From: Escherichia phage vB_EcoM_OE5505
DNA length: 64,000 nt
Reading direction: 5' to 3' (one strand)
Sequence record: NC_054926.1
The position numbers and the translations under genes are program-made. Below, one piece after another: positions 19,136 to 43,692 of the stretch. The notes below the pieces were generated by a model that saw only the letters and a program-made list of their open reading frames with translations, had not been told where the DNA came from and did not search any database. Within the stretch, counting starts at the first letter, position 1. Every line of letters begins with the position of its first letter.

Positions 19136-19663
19136 TTATGCGAGTACCGTCTTTAACCGTTCTTCAAACTTCCGAAGAGTATTTTGGCGTTCAGCTCTTT
19201 GCTTTTTGTAAGTTTCAATACGCTCTGAAATGAGAGTGTATCGTTCATTTACTGATTCTTTCATAAAATCAGGAATTTCACGAGAAGCTTTAATCTCATC
19301 AAATTTATCAATAACAGCTTGCTCTTCAGCAATTAAGTTATCATACATCAAAATATCTTTCTTGATGAACTCAATATCTTCTTGAGTTACACGAGATAAT
19401 TTAGATGCTTTATCCTTTTTGTACTGTTCGTTAGTATCACGAGACCAGTGTAATGTACGATTTTTATTCGTATTCTTGTAAATTTCTACAATACCAATCT
19501 CATCGATAATAACGATCCAATTCCAACGAGATTTGTAAATTTGTCCTCCGTCAACCGTGATTTCACCTCCGATTGAGATGTCATTAAAGAACTTGCTTTG
19601 TGCTTCTGATTTAAATTTACCATCGTTGTAATTTACCAAGTTGAAAATATCTTTAGCGTTCAT
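19136..19663 (-). CDS. Hypothetical protein (175 aa from ATG)
   Basis: ATG at 19663 with GGAGG SD; ORF-track N-terminal extension is promoter read-through. Confidence 0.55.
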   Translation of the reverse strand: MNAKDIFNLVNYNDGKFKSEAQSKFFNDISIGGEITVDGGQIYKSRWNWIVIIDEIGIVEIYKNTNKNRTLHWSRDTNEQYKKDKASKLSRVTQEDIEFIKKDILMYDNLIAEEQAVIDKFDEIKASREIPDFMKESVNERYTLISERIETYKKQRAERQNTLRKFEERLKTVLA

Positions 19664-19691: not shown

Positions 19692-19721
19692 ATAGTACCA
19701 CAGAGGAACGGTCTTGTAAAC
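19692..19721 (-). promoter_or_regulatory. Early promoter with conserved TGGTACTATACAACTATCAAC module (copy A)
   Basis: GTTTAC - 18 nt - TACTAT followed by conserved leader; one of four copies. Confidence 0.6.
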
Positions 19722-28859: not shown

Positions 28860-29321
28860 TCATTGAGTTTTAATTACTGCTTTAGAAGCCTTTCCTGGTA
28901 AACGACGACTATTGATAATTGCCATCCTGCATTGAAGCGACGGGTCTTTGAACTTCGCATTAGGTTTACAAACTGTAAATCCAAGCCAAAGATTTCCATC
29001 TGTGATTTCTAAACGTCCAGGACGGTATTCAACCCCATCAATAAAATCCTCATCAATGTCAGGACGCGGAGGCATACTCAGGAATTCATTAACTTCTAAA
29101 ACATGGTCTTTTATTTTGTGGAATAATTCAAAAACATATGTCTCATCAATCTCCCGTTGAATTGCACGATCAAGAAGATGTTGAGAATATTTTAGATGAA
29201 ACGATGAGACCCCTGCTGCTTTTGATGCCTCACGAATCTCATTGTTAATTTGACGAAACTCCGACTCAAAGTGACGACGAAGCTTATTTCGACGGATAAA
29301 AACTTCTGTATTGATAGTCAT
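28860..29321 (-). CDS. regB: Endoribonuclease RegB
   Basis: 153 aa; MTINTEVFIRRNKLRRHFESEFRQINNEIREA... matches recalled T4 RegB; early promoter directly upstream. Confidence 0.85.
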   Translation of the reverse strand: MTINTEVFIRRNKLRRHFESEFRQINNEIREASKAAGVSSFHLKYSQHLLDRAIQREIDETYVFELFHKIKDHVLEVNEFLSMPPRPDIDEDFIDGVEYRPGRLEITDGNLWLGFTVCKPNAKFKDPSLQCRMAIINSRRLPGKASKAVIKTQ

Positions 29322-29348: not shown

Positions 29349-29378
29349 ATTATACCACAGTCAAGAGGAAAAGTAAAC
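29349..29378 (-). promoter_or_regulatory. T4-type early promoter upstream of regB (GTTTAC - 18 nt - TGGTATAAT)
   Basis: Minus-strand consensus match. Confidence 0.65.
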
Positions 29379-38531: not shown

Positions 38532-39014
38532 TTATTTTATGTAATATTTATTTAAAAACTTTCTAGCTTGAGTATGGCTAACATTTATAGCGTTTGCATA
38601 ATTTTTAATAAAACCTCGTTCATCCATATTAAAATTTTCTAATATTTTTAATCGTCTAATTATCTCATCTTGGCTTAAGGTACTTGCATTATTTTTAGAA
38701 ATTTTTTCTAAAGACTGCACTGAGTGTTTTCGACCATTAAAATTAAAATTTTTAGGTTTTGGAGGAAATCTATCATTTAGTCTCGCATCTTTTGTATTTT
38801 GATTATTAGTTGCGCAATATATGTTATTTAATGAGTATGGTCCTTTATCACCAAAACGACACATACAGTATTCATGACCCTTTCTTCCACGCTTATCATA
38901 ATTTCCTGTTGATTTCCACCAATTTAACCACTCATCAAAAGTTAAATTCCATTCAATGTTTCTACGTATAGCAGAATTCCGCTGAGAAATATATTTTGCA
39001 TAATCTTCTTTCAT
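38532..39014 (-). CDS. Putative homing endonuclease-like protein with C-terminal HTH (160 aa)
   Basis: Inserted between tRNA genes; Cys/His-rich core GHEYCMCRFGDKGPYSLNNIYCATNN; C-terminal AINVSHTQARKFL resembles HTH of neighbouring HNH protein. Confidence 0.45.
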   Translation of the reverse strand: MKEDYAKYISQRNSAIRRNIEWNLTFDEWLNWWKSTGNYDKRGRKGHEYCMCRFGDKGPYSLNNIYCATNNQNTKDARLNDRFPPKPKNFNFNGRKHSVQSLEKISKNNASTLSQDEIIRRLKILENFNMDERGFIKNYANAINVSHTQARKFLNKYYIK

Positions 39015-39061
39015 CACAAATTTCTCTACTTATTACATGCACTAAGCTAAATCAGCAAAAC

Positions 39062-39151
39062 TGGCGGAGGCGATAGGATTTGAACCTATGAGTCGCCGGA
39101 GCGACTGCCGGTTTTCAAGACCGGTGCATTAAACCACTCTGCCACGCCTCC
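39062..39151 (-). tRNA. tRNA-Ser (anticodon UGA), long variable arm, CCA encoded
   Basis: Acceptor GGAGGCG/CGCCTCC, anticodon stem CCGGT/ACCGG loop CTTGAAA, long extra arm, T-loop GGTTCAAATCC. Confidence 0.85.
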
Positions 39152-39153
39152 AG

Positions 39154-39227
39154 TCTCCATACAAGGATTTGAACCTTGGACCTCCTGATCCCAAATCAGG
39201 CGCTCTACCAAACTGAGCTACACGGAG
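39154..39227 (-). tRNA. tRNA-Pro (anticodon UGG), CCA not encoded
   Basis: Anticodon stem CCTGA/TCAGG loop TTTGGGA; T-loop GGTTCAAATCC; 3' end directly abuts tRNA-Ser. Confidence 0.8.
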
Positions 39228-39237
39228 TAAATTAAAT

Positions 39238-39311
<74 letters not shown>

Positions 39312-39316
39312 AAATT

Positions 39317-39403
39317 TGGTGCGAGAAGTGGGACTCGAACCCACAAGGAAATCATTCCGCAGCATTTTAAGTGCTGTGCCTTTACCAATTTGACCATTCT
39401 CGC
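39317..39403 (-). tRNA. tRNA-Leu (anticodon UAA), long variable arm, CCA encoded
   Basis: Acceptor GCGAGAA/TTCTCGC, anticodon stem CAGCA/TGCTG loop CTTAAAA, T-loop GGTTCGAGTCC. Confidence 0.85.
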
Positions 39404-39409
39404 GCTATA

Positions 39410-40018
39410 TTATTTATTACGTGAAAAAGACTGTTCTATCAATTCTGGACACTTTCGTTCTATCCATTTTCTAGCTTTTTGTGGGCTTATACCTATTATT
39501 TTAGCAGCTTTACTAACCCATCCAAATTTAAAATAATCGATTTTAACTAATTCTTCGTAAATTTCATCAGTTAAAATCTTTTCATTAATATTTACCAGTA
39601 AATGATATAATTTATTATCATTAGCAATTTTAATGAATCTTTTATAGTTTCCGCCTTTACTTAAACCTAATGAAGTAATTGCAGATGATATAGTAGCCGA
39701 ATTTAATAGTGCGTTTAAAATTTCTTCATCACTAACATTATAACGCTTTCTATTATTTTTAATATTTTTACCAGCAAAAGTATCAGTTTGCGAATGGCAA
39801 TTTGGACATAATAATCTTAAATTTGATTTAAGATGATTTTTGTTATTTCCATCAATATGGTCTAATTGTAGAACAATATGCTTATTTTGCCATTTTGAAA
39901 TTTTACAAATTGCACACTCATATGGAAAAATATTTTCTTTTATTATTTTGTCTTTTAGCTTTCCTGTACTAAAATTTGGATGTTTTCCTTCAAAAATTTC
40001 AGCTAATTTAGTATCCAT
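39410..40018 (-). mobile_element. HNH homing endonuclease gene (202 aa from ATG) adjacent to tRNA-Leu
   Basis: Classic HNH motif LQLDHIDGNNKNHLKSNLRLLCPNCH; C-terminal HTH AAKIIGISPQKARKWIER; ORF-track start is TTG, ATG at 40018. Confidence 0.75.
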
Positions 40019-40128
40019 AATATGATTCCCAATTATTAACAAAGGCTCTTAAGCAAGAACCCTTGATGATAGAGGGTATTAATCAGTGCGATATGAGTTA
40101 ATAATAACAAATAATTCTTAAAGCATAT

Positions 40129-40416
40129 TTACCATTTATAATAATACATATTTACGATGCATTCAAGACCCAAAGGATTCTTGAAAATATCATATTCAAG
40201 AGGACCTTTTTCTGTTTCAATAAAGAAATCAAAATTTACTGTATTAAATTTACGTTCTTCCTTCACTAATTTAACTTGAGAAGATGAACGGTCAATGTAA
40301 ACCTTTTCAACTTCAAAACATGTTAAAATGCCATAATCATCAATCAAAGCTTTAGCCGCGTCTTGATCATATTTATATCCATTTTCAATGGATGATACTT
40401 TCGCATAAAGAATCAT
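40129..40416 (-). CDS. Hypothetical protein (95 aa)
   Basis: ATG start. Confidence 0.45.
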   Translation of the reverse strand: MILYAKVSSIENGYKYDQDAAKALIDDYGILTCFEVEKVYIDRSSSQVKLVKEERKFNTVNFDFFIETEKGPLEYDIFKNPLGLECIVNMYYYKW

Positions 40417-40418
40417 TA

Positions 40419-40817
40419 TCAGCCTTCATCAACAATAGTGTGAGTATTAGCATTTACGATTTGCCACCAATCAAAGCGATTAGAATCCATCGGTTTGTTT
40501 TCATTTTCTTTGATAATGTCACGGAGTTCATCTTCAGAGAATGCTTTAGCAATTAAATCGGTATACCCACCACGGGGATAATAATTATCACCTGCAAACA
40601 AAAGGAAATTTACCTTCCCGGAAGCAACATATGCTTCCTTAGGATACTTGTTTCCTGCGTGGTCAACCACTTCAATATAACGGTAAGGAATATCGGTTCT
40701 TTCAACCCATTGCCATGCCGCCGCAGGGGAATCGAAAGCATCTACACCTAAACGATTATCTTCATCTTTAGACGGATTATTTTCGTAATCCGCATATACA
40801 TAATATTCAACGTTCAT
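40419..40817 (-). CDS. Hypothetical acidic protein (132 aa)
   Basis: ATG start; abuts next gene. Confidence 0.5.
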   Translation of the reverse strand: MNVEYYVYADYENNPSKDEDNRLGVDAFDSPAAAWQWVERTDIPYRYIEVVDHAGNKYPKEAYVASGKVNFLLFAGDNYYPRGGYTDLIAKAFSEDELRDIIKENENKPMDSNRFDWWQIVNANTHTIVDEG

Positions 40818-41002
40818 TATTCACCTTTAGAAATTTTATCCATAACAATAGCAATTAAACCAATTAAAAATGCTACTACAAGTGAAAACACATTTTCTGC
40901 TGTAGTCAATAATCCACATATAAATCCAACAAACATTGAAAAACTAAAAGCGGAAGCAGAAATTGCAATAGCAACATTTCGAATTAATTCACAACGTTTC
41001 AT
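40817..41002 (-). CDS. Small membrane protein (61 aa)
   Basis: Two hydrophobic segments; ATG start; early promoter 41031..41060. Confidence 0.45.
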   Translation of the reverse strand: MKRCELIRNVAIAISASAFSFSMFVGFICGLLTTAENVFSLVVAFLIGLIAIVMDKISKGE

Positions 41003-41021
41003 TTTATTCTCCTCAGTAGTA

Positions 41022-41060
41022 GATAGGGTAATAGTATCACTACCCTATCTAAAAGTAAAC
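41022..41060 (-). promoter_or_regulatory. Early promoter with -10 box enclosed by inverted repeat GATAGGGTA/TACCCTATC
   Basis: GTTTAC - 18 nt - TACTAT; 9-bp arms flank the -10 hexamer. Confidence 0.55.
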
Positions 41061-41294
41061 TTATTTTTTACGAAAAATTGATTTATTTTCTGCTGCCCAT
41101 TTTTCAATAACTGCAGCAGGACCAGTAACAACAATTTTATCACCGTAATCTTCTGCGGCGAGTTGACCGAAATTATCTAATGCATCACGAAGAACTCCAT
41201 GAGGCATTTCACCCATTTTATCTTTCTTGCCAGTGTAAATAAACTCAACTTTTACATCAGCAGTTTCAGCAATAAATTCTTGGTAAGTTTTCAT
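41061..41294 (-). CDS. Internal protein I-like (capsid-targeted), 77 aa from MKTYQEFIAE
   Basis: Canonical capsid targeting sequence MKTYQEFIAE at ATG 41294; early promoter 41329..41358. Confidence 0.7.
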   Translation of the reverse strand: MKTYQEFIAETADVKVEFIYTGKKDKMGEMPHGVLRDALDNFGQLAAEDYGDKIVVTGPAAVIEKWAAENKSIFRKK

Positions 41295-41320
41295 TTTGAT
41301 TTCCATTTGGTTTTGTTTTG

Positions 41321-41358
41321 ATAGGGTAATAGTATCACAACTAAAACCCTATGTAAAC
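41321..41358 (-). promoter_or_regulatory. Early promoter with inverted repeat ATAGGGT/ACCCTAT around -10
   Basis: Same architecture, longer loop. Confidence 0.5.
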
Positions 41359-41370
41359 AACTTTGTGAAA

Positions 41371-41628
41371 TTATTTTAAATCTTCTAATCGTTTCTTCAT
41401 CTTAGAACCATTTTTAGCAATTTCTCCTGCATCGGAGCATAATGCTAAAAGTGCTTTAACTTTAGTTTGGTCTCCTTTAAAAGATGAAGGATCGACCGCA
41501 GCAGCAAGTTCTTTAATACGAGAGAAAAGACGCTCAGCTTCAGCTAAAGCCATTCCAAGCTTTACTTCCATACCGTGGGAAGATTCAGTGATAGTAGTTT
41601 TTGTAGCAAACTCTTTGAAAGTTTTCAT
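41371..41628 (-). CDS. Internal-protein-like small protein (85 aa)
   Basis: N-terminus MKTFKEFATK resembles capsid targeting sequence; early promoter 41660..41689. Confidence 0.55.
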   Translation of the reverse strand: MKTFKEFATKTTITESSHGMEVKLGMALAEAERLFSRIKELAAAVDPSSFKGDQTKVKALLALCSDAGEIAKNGSKMKKRLEDLK

Positions 41629-41650
41629 TTTTATTTTCCTAATTAATTTT

Positions 41651-41689
41651 GATGAGGTAATAGTATCACTACCTCATCAGTATGTAAAC
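41651..41689 (-). promoter_or_regulatory. Early promoter with -10 box enclosed by inverted repeat GATGAGGTA/TACCTCATC
   Basis: Covarying arms relative to 41022..41049 copy. Confidence 0.55.
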
Positions 41690-41701
41690 AACTTTGTGAA
41701 A

Positions 41702-42386
<685 letters not shown>

Positions 42387-42387
<1 letters not shown>

Positions 42388-43112
42388 TATAGTACCTTTA
42401 GTGTATTTTTAATTTTAGAAAAAAGTTCTTCAAGAGAACCATCGTTTGTAATTACTAAATCGCCATCACGAATTGGCAATCCAGCTTCTGTAATATGTGT
42501 ATCATTGGATTTTTGACCAGGACGAACTACATGAATTACTGTAGCACCCATCGCCCTAGCCGCATCCATTTCATGATCTTGACGGGTATCAGGAACGATA
42601 TAATAATCATAACCTGAGTTAAATTTATCAAGATAATCTAAAGCAAATAATTTTACCCAGTACATGCGGTCGAAGTTATTAACAATCAAATCCGTACCTA
42701 GGGCTTGCATCAGACGACGGACTGACCATTGATCTTCAATATTATTTATAACGTCAATAATCTTGTTAAATGCTACGGAATTAACTGATTCTTGTCCTTC
42801 GTCATCAAAAACAAACACACCTTTAATTGGGCTTTTACCATTAAGATAGCAAAATGCTTGTTCCATAATCGTGATTACTTCTAATTTAGTTAGATTTAAA
42901 TTAGTCTCACGATCATAGTCAATTCCTTCAAACTCTTTACGAGTTAAGCAAGGATAGTCGGTATTTGCAGCAAATACTCCCCATGCATAAGCCAATGCAT
43001 CCTTAATAGGACCAGCAAGTTGGTATTTAACTGCAGAATAATTGCTCATGATAAAATCAGCAGTAGTATCTTTTCCACTACGCTTTACACCGCTTAAAAA
43101 GATTAGTTTCAT
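42387..43112 (-). CDS. 1: Deoxynucleoside monophosphate kinase gp1
   Basis: 241 aa; P-loop FLSGVKRSGKDT; matches recalled T4 gp1. Confidence 0.95.
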
Positions 43113-43161
43113 ATGTTTCTCCTCAAATTTAGTTAAGATTATAACACATGAAACTGAAGCA

Positions 43162-43692
43162 TTAAACTTCCGCTATAATTTTTCCATCTTTTTCTACTTG
43201 AAAATACGTATAAGGAATCGTTGCTGTACATACTAAAGCCGGGTCTGAATCTTCTGTGTAGCTAAATTCTACTTCAGATAGGTCAGAAACCCAAGGCTTA
43301 TAAAAATTTATTGACATCACGATTTCAGTTTTGCTATTATCTAAAATGTAAAGCGTAATGTATTCAGGACCTGTTTTTTGGGCAGTATTTTCGCCTGTAA
43401 GATAGTTACTAGTTCCTAGCATCCATTCATACATTCCTATCCACGACTTAAGCTCTTCGTCAACTATAAATCTCACGATGAGTGGATCGTATTCAAATGT
43501 AACTCCTGGACGTTGTGCTCTGCCTAGTCCAAACGGCCCAGTCACGGTATCAGTAACAGGTATCCTAATTCCTGGAATAGGAACTGACTGAGCATTTAAA
43601 GTAAAAGCAGATGTAGTATTACTATGTGGTATTGATACTACAAAGTTAGTTGTATTTGCTTGGTTAAAAATTTGTTGCAGTGCTTGCGACAT
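43162..43692 (-). CDS. 3: Tail sheath stabilizer/tail completion protein gp3
   Basis: 176 aa from ATG at 43692 with GAGGAA SD (ORF-track start further upstream); position between 1 and 2. Confidence 0.85.
   Translation of the reverse strand: MSQALQQIFNQANTTNFVVSIPHSNTTSAFTLNAQSVPIPGIRIPVTDTVTGPFGLGRAQRPGVTFEYDPLIVRFIVDEELKSWIGMYEWMLGTSNYLTGENTAQKTGPEYITLYILDNSKTEIVMSINFYKPWVSDLSEVEFSYTEDSDPALVCTATIPYTYFQVEKDGKIIAEV

Follow-up and report, generated by a model that had tools for sequence, protein, structure and literature searches.

The window, a 64,000-nucleotide stretch of Escherichia phage vB_EcoM_OE5505 (NC_054926.1), belongs to a T4-like phage (Tequatrovirus); across the locus described here, its sequence matches Tequatrovirus genomes at 100% identity. 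This locus is bounded by gene 57B, its conserved upstream anchor, on one side and by a trna.4-like gene on the other, and on its minus strand three GTTTAC-N18-TACTAT early promoters stand ahead of two internal-protein genes and a small membrane ORF (Table 1). The product of the first internal-protein gene begins with MKTFKEF, a capsid-targeting leader; the first pair of cassettes carries this gene as its cargo, and the counterpart of the gene in phage PP01 is annotated ip5. The second gene, which is flanked by cassettes B and C and is absent from T4 and slur04, probably starts at 41294 (MKTYQEF), the longest ORF beginning at 41306. Internal proteins are abundant head components that are made late as well as early in T4 infection. 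They are injected anti-restriction factors, and the GmrSD enzyme that is blocked differs among Ip1, Ip2 and Ip3 (PMC12373910). A Pfam search gave no match for the 210-aa ORF adjoining the tRNA genes, and an Rfam scan of 39000-43500 (E<=1) recovered the tRNA genes and sub-threshold noise, with no match on the cassettes.

Table 1. Positions of genes, promoter cassettes and cassette parts in the window
Feature	Position	Strand	Remarks
T4 late-promoter consensus TATAAATA	42743..42750	-	nearest upstream match on the minus strand, within gene 1; putative promoter
Gene 57B	41702..42160	-	2H-phosphoesterase or Acb1-like protein by annotation in related records
Cassette A	41640..41717	-	57B/first internal-protein gene interval; T4 sequence upstream of ipI identical
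A, AT-rich upstream block	41717-41690	-	
A, 57B stop codon	41704-41702	-	
A, -35 GTTTAC	41689-41684	-	
A, 5' arm TGATGAGGTA	41679-41670	-	10 bp, perfect
A, loop GTGATACTAT	41669-41660	-	10 nt, contains extended -10
A, -10 TACTAT	41665-41660	-	
A, 3' arm TACCTCATCA	41659-41650	-	10 bp, perfect
A, predicted start (A)	41653	-	
A, Shine-Dalgarno AGGA	41640-41637	-	
Downstream homology block	41593..41636	-	Shine-Dalgarno and first capsid-targeting-leader codons; repeat at 41259-41302, 77% identity
Internal head protein gene	41371..41628	-	85 aa; PHROG 3499 internal head protein, E 1e-49
Cassette B	41295..41386	-	between both internal-protein genes
B, upstream block	41386-41359	-	includes final codons D-L-K-stop, like the 57B end
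B, -35	41358-41353	-	
B, 5' arm ATAGGGT	41352-41346	-	7 bp; loop 18 nt
B, -10	41334-41329	-	
B, 3' arm ACCCTAT	41327-41321	-	7 bp
B, predicted start (A)	41322	-	
Internal virion protein gene	41061..41306	-	PHROG 8111, E 1e-52
Cassette C	41003..41063	-	second internal-protein gene/trna.4-like ORF interval
C, upstream stop codon	41063-41061	-	abuts -35
C, -35	41060-41055	-	
C, 5' arm TAGATAGGGTA	41051-41041	-	11 bp, perfect
C, loop	41040-41031	-	10 nt
C, -10	41036-41031	-	
C, 3' arm TACCCTATCTA	41030-41020	-	11 bp, perfect
C, predicted start (A)	41024	-	
trna.4-like small membrane ORF	40817..41002	-	61 aa; served by cassette C

Anatomy of the three cassettes

Each cassette is an intergenic unit of about 60-75 bp that opens with the 3' end of the preceding ORF and an AT-rich, UP-like block, continues with a strong sigma-70/T4 early promoter (GTTTAC, 17-18 nt, TGTGATACTAT), and ends with a Shine-Dalgarno sequence followed by the start of the next small gene. 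An inverted repeat is built into the promoter itself, its 5' arm filling the spacer and its 3' arm lying over the discriminator and the start-site region. The repeats had been described from the sequence alone as 7-9 bp long; they are present and perfect, but they measure 10, 7 and 11 bp in cassettes A, B and C. The loop of cassette B is longer than the others because its 5' arm directly abuts the -35 element. The upstream stop codon lies 12, 12 and 0 nt from the -35 element in cassettes A, B and C, the hairpins lie 0-25 nt 3' of that codon, and the ATG follows the -10 element by 22-34 nt, a range that depends on the start chosen for the second gene. The 3' arms stop approximately 10-15 nt before the Shine-Dalgarno sequences and pair neither with these nor with the start codons; the Shine-Dalgarno sequence of cassette C, GAGGAG, includes the RegB motif GGAG. 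As sense RNA, the three cassettes fold with energies of -17.4, -18.1 and -18.5 kcal/mol (z of -4.6, -4.7 and -3.5).

Several features identify the promoters as early promoters of the T4 type. The pattern GTTTAC-N18-TACTAT is equivalent to TTTACA/T-N17-TACTAT, a TG precedes the -10 element, and the upstream sequence is AT-rich; moreover, the window holds 7 copies of GTTTAC-N14-20-TACTAT where 0.09 would be expected. The loop GTGATACTAT conforms to the extended -10 consensus of T4 early promoters, TGTG(A/G)TA(C/T)(A/T)AT (bioRxiv 10.1101/2024.04.04.588121), and in fPS-2 the annotation marks the homologous sites as predicted early promoters. The three motifs proposed as early promoters in the sequence-only reading are all found where it had placed them and lie on the minus strand, and their assignment as early promoters is supported by the consensus, by the identity of cassette A to the T4 ipI region and by the fPS-2 annotation. 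The corresponding predicted start sites in T4 are at 73903 (ipI) and 73536 (trna.4), again on the minus strand. For the opposite strand, the idea of a divergent promoter was rejected, since the reverse complement of the -10 element, ATAGTA, is not a -10 box. Neither the eLife 2022 paper on T4 evolution nor the 2025 paper on internal proteins (PMC12373910) mentions these promoters.

Stem enrichment and covariation

Across a comparison set of roughly 290 promoters of this kind, drawn from phage and metagenome contigs, there are 33 stems of at least 7 bp with the -10 element in the loop (4.8 expected) and 45 lying wholly upstream of the -35 element (10.9 expected), whereas stems of this length wholly downstream of the -10 element are not enriched (10 against 7.7 expected). 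The metagenome scan covers many loci without a T4-like protein, mostly apparent chance matches to the 16-base pattern, which act only as a diluting background. In 22 of 158 unique GTTTAC-N18-TAYWAT cassettes the -10 element is enclosed by a perfect stem of 7 bp or more, where 1.9 would be expected with shuffled and 4.3 with swapped 3' flanks; the chance of such a stem is approximately 1.2% per shuffled cassette (1.9/158), and all three cassettes of the window possess one. Furthermore, when 90 IMG/VR cassettes chosen without regard to pairing were tested in the fixed register of cassette A, 49.1% of the cells were paired, as compared with 42.8% after shuffling and 36-41% when the register was slid, and the covariation score was 0.271 against 0.192 for shuffled cassettes; both observed values were reached in 0 of 500 shuffles.

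The arms themselves change from cassette to cassette. Those of cassette A (GATGAGGTA/TACCTCATC) and cassette C (GATAGGGTA/TACCCTATC) differ by two fully compensated pairs, just as had been noticed at the outset. Unrelated arms occupy the same geometry elsewhere, for example GGTAGAAGAC/GTCTTCTACC, GTGTAGGAGC/GCTCCTACAC and CCGGAAGT/ACTTCCGG, and more than 12 unrelated pairs keep it in all, including pairs at the present locus in three other genera. The different arms found there in other genera include GTTTACAAGGTCT/AGACCTTGTAAAC in MX01, GATAGGACTA/TAGTCCTATC in WFL6982, and GTGTAGGTG/CACCTACAC, ATGGGATA/TATCCCAT and GGTCTAG/CTAGACC in RZ and UPEC01, the -35 element of the latter two phages being GTGTAC. 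Because so many unrelated arm sequences retain the geometry, far above chance, the covariation claimed in the sequence-only reading is real: the arms stay complementary while they diverge, from locus to locus and also, between genera, at the present one. That reading had also named non-compensatory arm changes in related phages as evidence that would count against it, and here the relatives give a mixed answer, non-compensated stems and stems broken by recombination being present among them. The stems are not universal: in approximately one third of the examined internal-protein-locus cassettes they reach no more than 3-6 bp, and natural recombinants with mismatched arms survive. Since broken-stem cassettes exist, the stem is favoured rather than obligatory.

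These broken stems bear on the proposal that the stems have no function and that their complementarity is a mutational by-product, either of templated quasi-palindrome correction during replication, a process known from work on T4 rII, or of gene conversion between cassettes. Cassettes plainly exchange segments, and the survival of broken-stem chimeras implies that phages can do without the stem, for a short time at least. Templated correction, however, perfects palindromes that already exist and leaves unexplained how more than 12 unrelated ones came to lie at the same place relative to the -10 element in different genes and genera, nor does it account for stems being enriched at the promoter and on its upstream side when those on its downstream side are not. 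We therefore consider this explanation very unlikely.

The diversity of the arms bears equally on a role in DNA binding, whereby a phage or host factor would read the dyad around the -10 element, as an operator or as a structure tuning its own promoter, and so modulate early transcription. Early transcription is shut off globally, but most early promoters, several in this window included, lack such a dyad. The loop size and register of the stems vary from 9 to 20 nt, and the arms share no common sequence between cassettes, which excludes a single sequence-specific binder; a sequence-specific operator was rejected on this ground, the arms being completely different from one cassette to another. 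The dyad is nevertheless centred on the -10 element, and how early promoters are shut off, as well as what determines their stimulation by Alt, is reported to be unknown (PMC3014915; PMC2988021). We regard such an operator or promoter-tuning structure as extremely improbable.

Proposed hairpins in read-through RNA

The arms lie in parts of the promoter that RNA polymerase reads loosely, and they are thus free to drift as long as they remain complementary. The predicted start, an A 7 nt past the -10 element, falls inside the 3' arm, so that the cassette's own transcript would lack the hairpin. The full hairpin of 10-14 bp (about -17 to -18.5 kcal/mol) would form only in RNA entering from upstream, which may originate in 57B, at the preceding cassette or at the gene 1 late promoter. 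Since it would lie 0-25 nt past the upstream stop codon, it would mark the cistron boundary in polycistronic RNA. The stems are enriched only at positions that would be absent from the promoter's own transcript. We infer the start site within the 3' arm and the read-through RNA, as well as the folding of the hairpin in vivo and what it does biochemically.

A further line of evidence concerns the strand on which the stem folds. Internal transition mismatches, read on the sense strand, comprise 9 G.T and 1 A.C, and the sense RNA folds better than the antisense by 1.4-3.8 kcal/mol, part of this advantage coming from G.U pairs in the promoter-constrained loop GUG...UAU. The energy of the arms-only duplex favours the sense strand by 0.3 kcal/mol, which is not significant (p=0.28), and the energies thus give no firm strand preference; the strand asymmetry accordingly rests on approximately ten mismatches, some of which are of common ancestry. 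Among the three mechanisms put forward in the sequence-only reading, the hairpin in read-through RNA is the best fit to the stem positions and to the G.T bias, whereas a protein-binding palindrome is disfavoured by the lack of a common arm sequence and a cruciform is unlikely given loops of 10-18 nt. On balance, it is probable that these elements are T-even-type promoter/stem-loop cassettes, in which the hairpin in read-through RNA acts as a barrier to processing or to exonucleases, or as a weak attenuator, these being its most likely roles, and in which the flanks provide homology for shuffling.

A stronger version of attenuation holds that the hairpin is an effective terminator that stops upstream transcripts, so that each small gene would be expressed only from its own early promoter, which is the literal reading of the published promoter/stem-loop (PeSL) elements. 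The RB49 PeSL211/210 stem-loop cuts expression of a downstream lacZ about as much as rrnB T1 does (Arbiol 2010, PMC2839356); this is strong termination, unlike the role favoured here, and that stem is GC-rich (PMC2839356). As in intrinsic terminators, the cassettes would place a stable sense-RNA hairpin soon after a stop codon, but they differ from terminators in lacking a U-tract and in having large loops and moderately AT-rich stems. None of the 33 stems enclosing the -10 element has at least 5 T in its 8-nt tail, as compared with 16 of the 45 stems upstream of the -35 element, and the former are therefore not canonical terminators. The latter include unmistakable intrinsic terminators, in which UUCG or UACG loops are combined with U-tracts; the same data set thus holds true terminator stems, and in these genuine terminator-plus-promoter pairs of the same phages the hairpin lies upstream of the -35 element. 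The tails of the 3' arms in the cassettes (AAAAUUAA, CAAAACAA and CUACUGAG) contain no U-rich tract, A-rich tails such as AUCAAAA and AUCAACUAC are seen, and a terminator scan found 0 sites in the cassettes. Additionally, late transcripts starting at 42743..42750 would have to cross the cassettes to reach the internal-protein genes; because this is the sole upstream late-promoter consensus on the minus strand, late internal-protein mRNA would have to traverse the hairpins. We regard effective termination as unlikely.

The -10-enclosing stems thus show none of the sequence hallmarks of an intrinsic terminator, in contrast to the second class upstream of the -35 element. Together with the restriction of stem enrichment to positions that would be absent from the promoter's own transcript, this refinement makes the published label "promoter-terminator" doubtful for T-even internal-protein cassettes. 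Another proposal, which we hold to be unlikely, is that the -10-enclosing hairpins form a functionally distinct subclass, a switch reporting the origin of a transcript rather than a weak terminator. RNA from the cassette's own promoter would be unstructured and short-lived, and RNA from upstream, including late RNA from gene 1, would carry a hairpin beside the internal-protein cistron that might alter processing or half-life, for example as a 5'- or 3'-terminal protective stem after endonuclease cleavage. If true, such a switch would give early and late expression of injected anti-defence proteins from one compact cassette. More speculatively still, the dyad might influence the shut-off of early promoters or their response to Alt.

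Cassette mosaics and related elements

The number of cassettes follows the gene content of the locus: slur04 has no internal-protein gene and one cassette, T4, fPS-2 and PP01 each have one gene and two cassettes, and the window, MX01 and SP1 each have two genes and three cassettes. In T4, cassette A is unchanged upstream of ipI and a B/C hybrid precedes trna.4. Alignment shows that the slur04 and T4 cassettes are mosaics of the left part of B and the right part of C, joined within a shared core; chimeric cassettes are likewise present in L044, L076 and SP1, and, in a search matching roughly 950 phage records, many records match the cassettes alone. The downstream homology block adds a further patch of homology 3' of each cassette. 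The conserved blocks on either side, together with the shared core GTGATACTATTACCCTATC, may serve as short homologies through which recombination would insert, delete and swap internal-protein genes. The cassettes are the likely means of internal-protein gene swapping in T4-like phages, which makes them relevant to host range and to the engineering of phages.

The mosaics invite a DNA-level explanation in which the inverted repeat would extrude from supercoiled DNA, or fold in single-stranded DNA, as a cruciform or hairpin that attracts structure-specific nucleases or the recombination machinery and creates a hot spot, selection then acting on shuffling rather than on RNA. The natural chimeras join in or near the shared loop, and in RB49 the crossover of a mini-circle was mapped within the loop of a stem-loop, the stem being suggested as a target of recombination proteins (Arbiol 2010, PMC2839356). 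Homologous recombination in T4, however, needs just small (<50 bp) patches of homology (Arbiol 2010, PMC2839356), and the shared core of 19-30 nt and the conserved flanks already explain the crossovers by this ordinary route. Loops of 10-18 nt also make cruciform extrusion costly, the 9:1 bias of G.T over A.C would not be expected if both strands had to fold, and evolvability by itself would select only weakly for the upkeep of individual stems. Such a hot spot is decidedly unlikely, and we retain the read-through hairpin as the preferred reading.

The 1994 study of Repoila et al. (EMBO J 13:4181) reportedly describes conserved flanking blocks of the T-even IP1 locus. In that study, as reported, and in the account of the PST/T4 PeSLs (PMC4122927), the locus (57B, internal-protein genes, trna.4) and the phage group are the same as here, and conserved transcription and translation signals flank interchangeable internal-protein ORFs with a conserved N-terminal leader. 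PeSL cassettes, including a subclass in which the stem-loop overlaps the -10 element, were described by Arbiol 2010 (PMC2839356), who credits Repoila 1994 with PeSL-like elements at T-even internal-protein loci and describes the elements there as AT-rich stem-loops of variable size on T4 early promoters, analogues rather than homologues of the RB49 PeSLs; Comeau 2014 (PMC4122927) extends PeSLs to the T4/PST pair. The class to which the present cassettes belong, the PeSL or PeSL-like promoter/stem-loop cassettes of internal-protein loci, is therefore already described, a point that the sequence-only reading had missed along with the role of the flanks as recombination linkers, and the finding opens no new question. 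Beyond the published descriptions consulted here are the absence of U-tracts in 33 stems and the existence of broken-stem recombinant cassettes.

The cassettes share with PeSLs an early promoter with AT-rich upstream sequence, a stable stem-loop and repetition in a region of gene-content differences. [quoted passage not shown] The RB49 and phi1 promoters, however, are near-perfect TTGACA/TATAAT with GC-rich GGGG...CCCC stems, whereas those at the present locus are of the T4 early type with AT-rich, variable stems; the -35 elements, -10 elements and stems all differ from the RB49/phi1 consensus, and we find no homology to it. Terminator activity and mini-circle formation were demonstrated for RB49 and phi1 alone. 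In PST the stem-loops are drawn just upstream of the promoter TTTACW-N17-TAYWAT (Comeau 2014, PMC4122927), whereas the arms described here enclose the -10 element.

Hairpins with an internal promoter are also found at the translation initiation regions of the T4 genes e, soc, 49 and I-TevI (PMC3014915, PMC2330249). These resemble the cassettes in that the promoter lies inside or overlaps the hairpin, which is carried by upstream transcripts and is missing from those of the internal promoter, as predicted here from the start site. They differ in two respects: the Shine-Dalgarno sequence or start codon is sequestered by their 3' arm, and their internal promoter is late or middle, the promoter being early in the present cassettes. 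Elsewhere in the window, this classic sequestering design fits two other early promoters, those of regB at 29378 and of an ORF at 19663 (promoter 19721).

Promoters and inverted repeats of the internal-protein locus

The window comes from a T4-like phage; over 40400-42400 it matches Yersinia phage PYps5T and several Escherichia Tequatrovirus genomes with 100% identity. The products of the two small genes downstream of 57B start with the capsid-targeting leader known from T4 internal proteins, MKTFKEF in one and MKTYQEF in the other, and match the PHROGs "internal head protein" (E 1e-49) and "internal virion protein" (E 1e-52). GTTTAC-N18-TACTAT, with seven occurrences in the window where 0.09 are expected, precedes both genes and the trna.4-like ORF. 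The sequence-only reading had placed inverted repeats of 7-9 bp around the -10 boxes of these three promoters; they are indeed there, and slightly longer at 10, 7 and 11 bp in cassettes A, B and C, which precede the first internal-protein gene, the second and the trna.4-like ORF, respectively. The 10-nt loop GTGATACTAT corresponds to the T4 early extended -10 consensus, TGTG(A/G)TA(C/T)(A/T)AT (bioRxiv 10.1101/2024.04.04.588121). Sense RNA of cassettes A, B and C folds at -17.4, -18.1 and -18.5 kcal/mol (z -4.6, -4.7 and -3.5), and the antisense strand 1.4-3.8 kcal/mol less favorably. With initiation taken 7 nt after the -10 box, starts are predicted at 41653, 41322 and 41024, and the cassettes' own transcripts would therefore begin within the 3' arm.

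These cassettes belong to a published class. Promoter-early stem-loop (PeSL) cassettes were defined in RB49 and phi1 by Arbiol et al. 2010 (PMC2839356), with subclasses set by stem-loop position, one of which overlaps the -10 box. That article credits Repoila et al. 1994 with PeSL-like sequences at two hypervariable T-even internal-protein loci, describes them as built on T4 early promoters, the stem-loops being weaker, rich in AT and variable in size, and suggests that they may account for the plasticity of these loci. PeSLs with the promoter consensus TTTACW-N17-TAYWAT were later described for the T4/PST pair (Comeau et al. 2014, PMC4122927). T4 has an identical copy of cassette A in front of ipI, and its trna.4 is preceded by a B/C hybrid. 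Given the published class and the identity to the T4 ipI promoter region, novelty is low; cassettes that enclose the -10 box do not resemble the "promoter-terminator" units named in the literature.

Features of the window discussed in the text
Feature	Coordinates	Strand	Remarks
Gene 1, dNMP kinase	42387-43112	-	first in gene order
57A	42157-42387	-	after gene 1
57B	41702-42160	-	after 57A
Two small internal-protein genes	41371-41628, 41061-41306	-	after 57B
trna.4-like membrane ORF	40817-41002	-	61 aa; last in gene order
Cassette A inverted repeat	41679-41670 / 41659-41650	-	10 bp
Cassette B inverted repeat	41352-41346 / 41327-41321	-	7 bp, 18-nt loop
Cassette C inverted repeat	41051-41041 / 41030-41020	-	11 bp
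regB early promoter hairpin	29385-29310	-	15-18 bp; -35 at 29378; -23.1 kcal/mol, z -5.0
regB endoribonuclease gene	28860-29321		PHROG 1323
Second early promoter	19728-19655	-	GTTTAC at 19721; upstream of ORF 19136-19663; -21.1 kcal/mol, z -3.7
Early promoter with spacer palindrome	21160-21131	-	14-nt palindrome
Four tRNA genes (Rfam)	39021-39403	-	T4-type tRNA cluster
210-aa ORF	39410-40042	-	HNH-like motif DHIDGNNKNH...CPNCH

Complementarity of the arms

IMG/VR and a metagenome collection were scanned for GTTTAC-N14-GTGATACTAT with both arms left unconstrained. In 22 of 158 unique GTTTAC-N18-TAYWAT cassettes the -10 box is enclosed by a perfect stem of 7 bp or longer, against 1.9 expected when the 3' flank is shuffled and 4.3 when it is swapped among cassettes. 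In an ungapped alignment of 90 cassettes from IMG/VR, chosen without regard to pairing, 49.1% of cells are paired in the fixed register of cassette A, compared with 42.8% in column shuffles (0/500 reach the observed value) and 36-41% when the partner is slid from that register; the covariation score is 0.271 versus 0.192 shuffled (0/500). From one cassette to the next the arms have unrelated sequences, such as GGTAGAAGAC/GTCTTCTACC, GTGTAGGAGC/GCTCCTACAC, TGGTGGAGTT/AACTCTACCA and CCGGAAGT/ACTTCCGG, and the same locus in other genera keeps the architecture with still other arms: GTTTACAAGGTCT/AGACCTTGTAAAC in Dhakavirus MX01, GATAGGACTA/TAGTCCTATC in Mosigvirus WFL6982, and GTGTAGGTG/CACCTACAC, ATGGGATA/TATCCCAT and GGTCTAG/CTAGACC in Gaprivervirus RZ and UPEC01, where the -35 hexamer is GTGTAC. 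The covariation first noticed between copies in the window is thus real, and selection for complementarity is well supported by the stem excess, the covariation and the turnover of arms within a constant architecture. Templated quasi-palindrome correction could sharpen such stems but leaves their positions unexplained.

This selection is not absolute. About one third of internal-protein-locus cassettes have stems of only 3-6 bp, and the stem is lost in natural hybrids that join a 5' arm of one type to a 3' arm of another (scan loci L044 and L076, and the second SP1 cassette); PP01 carries a hybrid-arm cassette with a weakened stem.

Position and probable role of the hairpin

Stems of 7 bp or more are in excess with the -10 box in the loop (33 versus 4.8 expected) and wholly upstream of the -35 box (45 versus 10.9), with no enrichment wholly downstream of the -10 box (10 versus 7.7). 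The enrichment therefore falls exactly where the promoter's own transcript would exclude the stem, a position that fits a structure meant for RNA arriving from upstream. Transition mismatches in otherwise Watson-Crick stems number nine G.T versus one A.C on the sense strand; because arms-only duplex energies do not differ significantly between strands (p=0.28), the sense-strand preference is only suggestive. Among the stems upstream of the -35 box are classic terminators that have a U-tract and a loop of UUCG or UACG, and at least five T occur in the 8-nt tail of 16/45 stems at this position versus 0/33 stems enclosing the -10 box; a terminator scan found none in the cassettes. Six loci (L034, L053, L093, L072, L158 and L003) carry stems rich in GC, with loops of the UUCG or UACG type, 40-45 nt upstream of GTTTAC promoters and with the U-tract 14-21 nt before the -35 box. 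These genuine terminator-plus-promoter units are a class apart from -10-enclosing stems in the same phage group.

T4 produces its internal proteins both early and late. The sole upstream late-promoter consensus on the same strand lies inside gene 1 (42750-42743), so late mRNA would cross the hairpins. Together with stem position, strand and the lack of terminator signals, this favors a cistron-boundary RNA element, present only in read-through transcripts. Instead of terminating transcription efficiently, such an element would obstruct processing or exonucleases or serve as a weak attenuator. Of the three mechanisms initially proposed, the RNA hairpin fares best. Arm diversity excludes a sequence-specific protein-binding palindrome, and the 10-18-nt loops count against a cruciform or single-strand DNA hairpin, which might promote recombination but is unnecessary to account for crossovers.

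Gene shuffling and related promoters

Between 57B and trna.4, internal-protein genes and cassettes vary in number together: no gene with one cassette in slur04, one with two in T4, fPS-2 and PP01, and two with three in the window, MX01 and SP1. By alignment, both the sole cassette of slur04 and the one between ipI and trna.4 in T4 are the left part of cassette B of the window joined to the right part of its cassette C, within the shared core GTGATACTATTACCCTATC. Upstream homology reaches the last codons (57B, like the first internal-protein gene, ends in D-L-K-stop), downstream homology takes in the Shine-Dalgarno sequence and leader codons, and many phage-collection records match these blocks only. 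Gene and cassette counts, mosaic joint and flanking homology point to a recombination-linker role for the cassettes. The chimeric cassettes in L044 (3490-3535, 3823-3868), L076 (2036-2081) and L253 (SP1, second cassette) look like direct crossover footprints inside the shared -10 core.

In two other early promoters of the window the spacer holds the 5' arm, and the 3' arm lies over the Shine-Dalgarno sequence. At regB the 3' arm covers AAGAGGAGAA, which contains GGAG, RegB's own target; the ribosome-binding site would be sequestered in read-through RNA and free in the promoter's own RNA. At the 19721 promoter, upstream of an ORF whose PHROG is of unknown function, the arms are GTTCCTCTGTGG and CTACGGAGGAAC. 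Both match the T4 scheme of a translation-initiation-region hairpin with an internal promoter (PMC3014915; PMC2330249) and show that a promoter inside a hairpin recurs as a device in these genomes. A further early promoter carries a perfect palindrome, CATAAAGCTTTATG, wholly in its spacer, a geometry unlike that of -10-enclosing stems.

Related records label 57B variously as RNA ligase, cyclic nucleotide phosphodiesterase or anti-CBASS protein Acb1, so that an anti-defence gene lies directly upstream of injected anti-restriction internal-protein genes. Just downstream of the locus, the tRNA genes adjoin a 210-aa ORF that has no Pfam match at E<=0.001 and may, from its HNH-like motif, be a free-standing homing endonuclease. 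T4 has no such ORF at this position; its segB, within the tRNA cluster, is a GIY-YIG enzyme.
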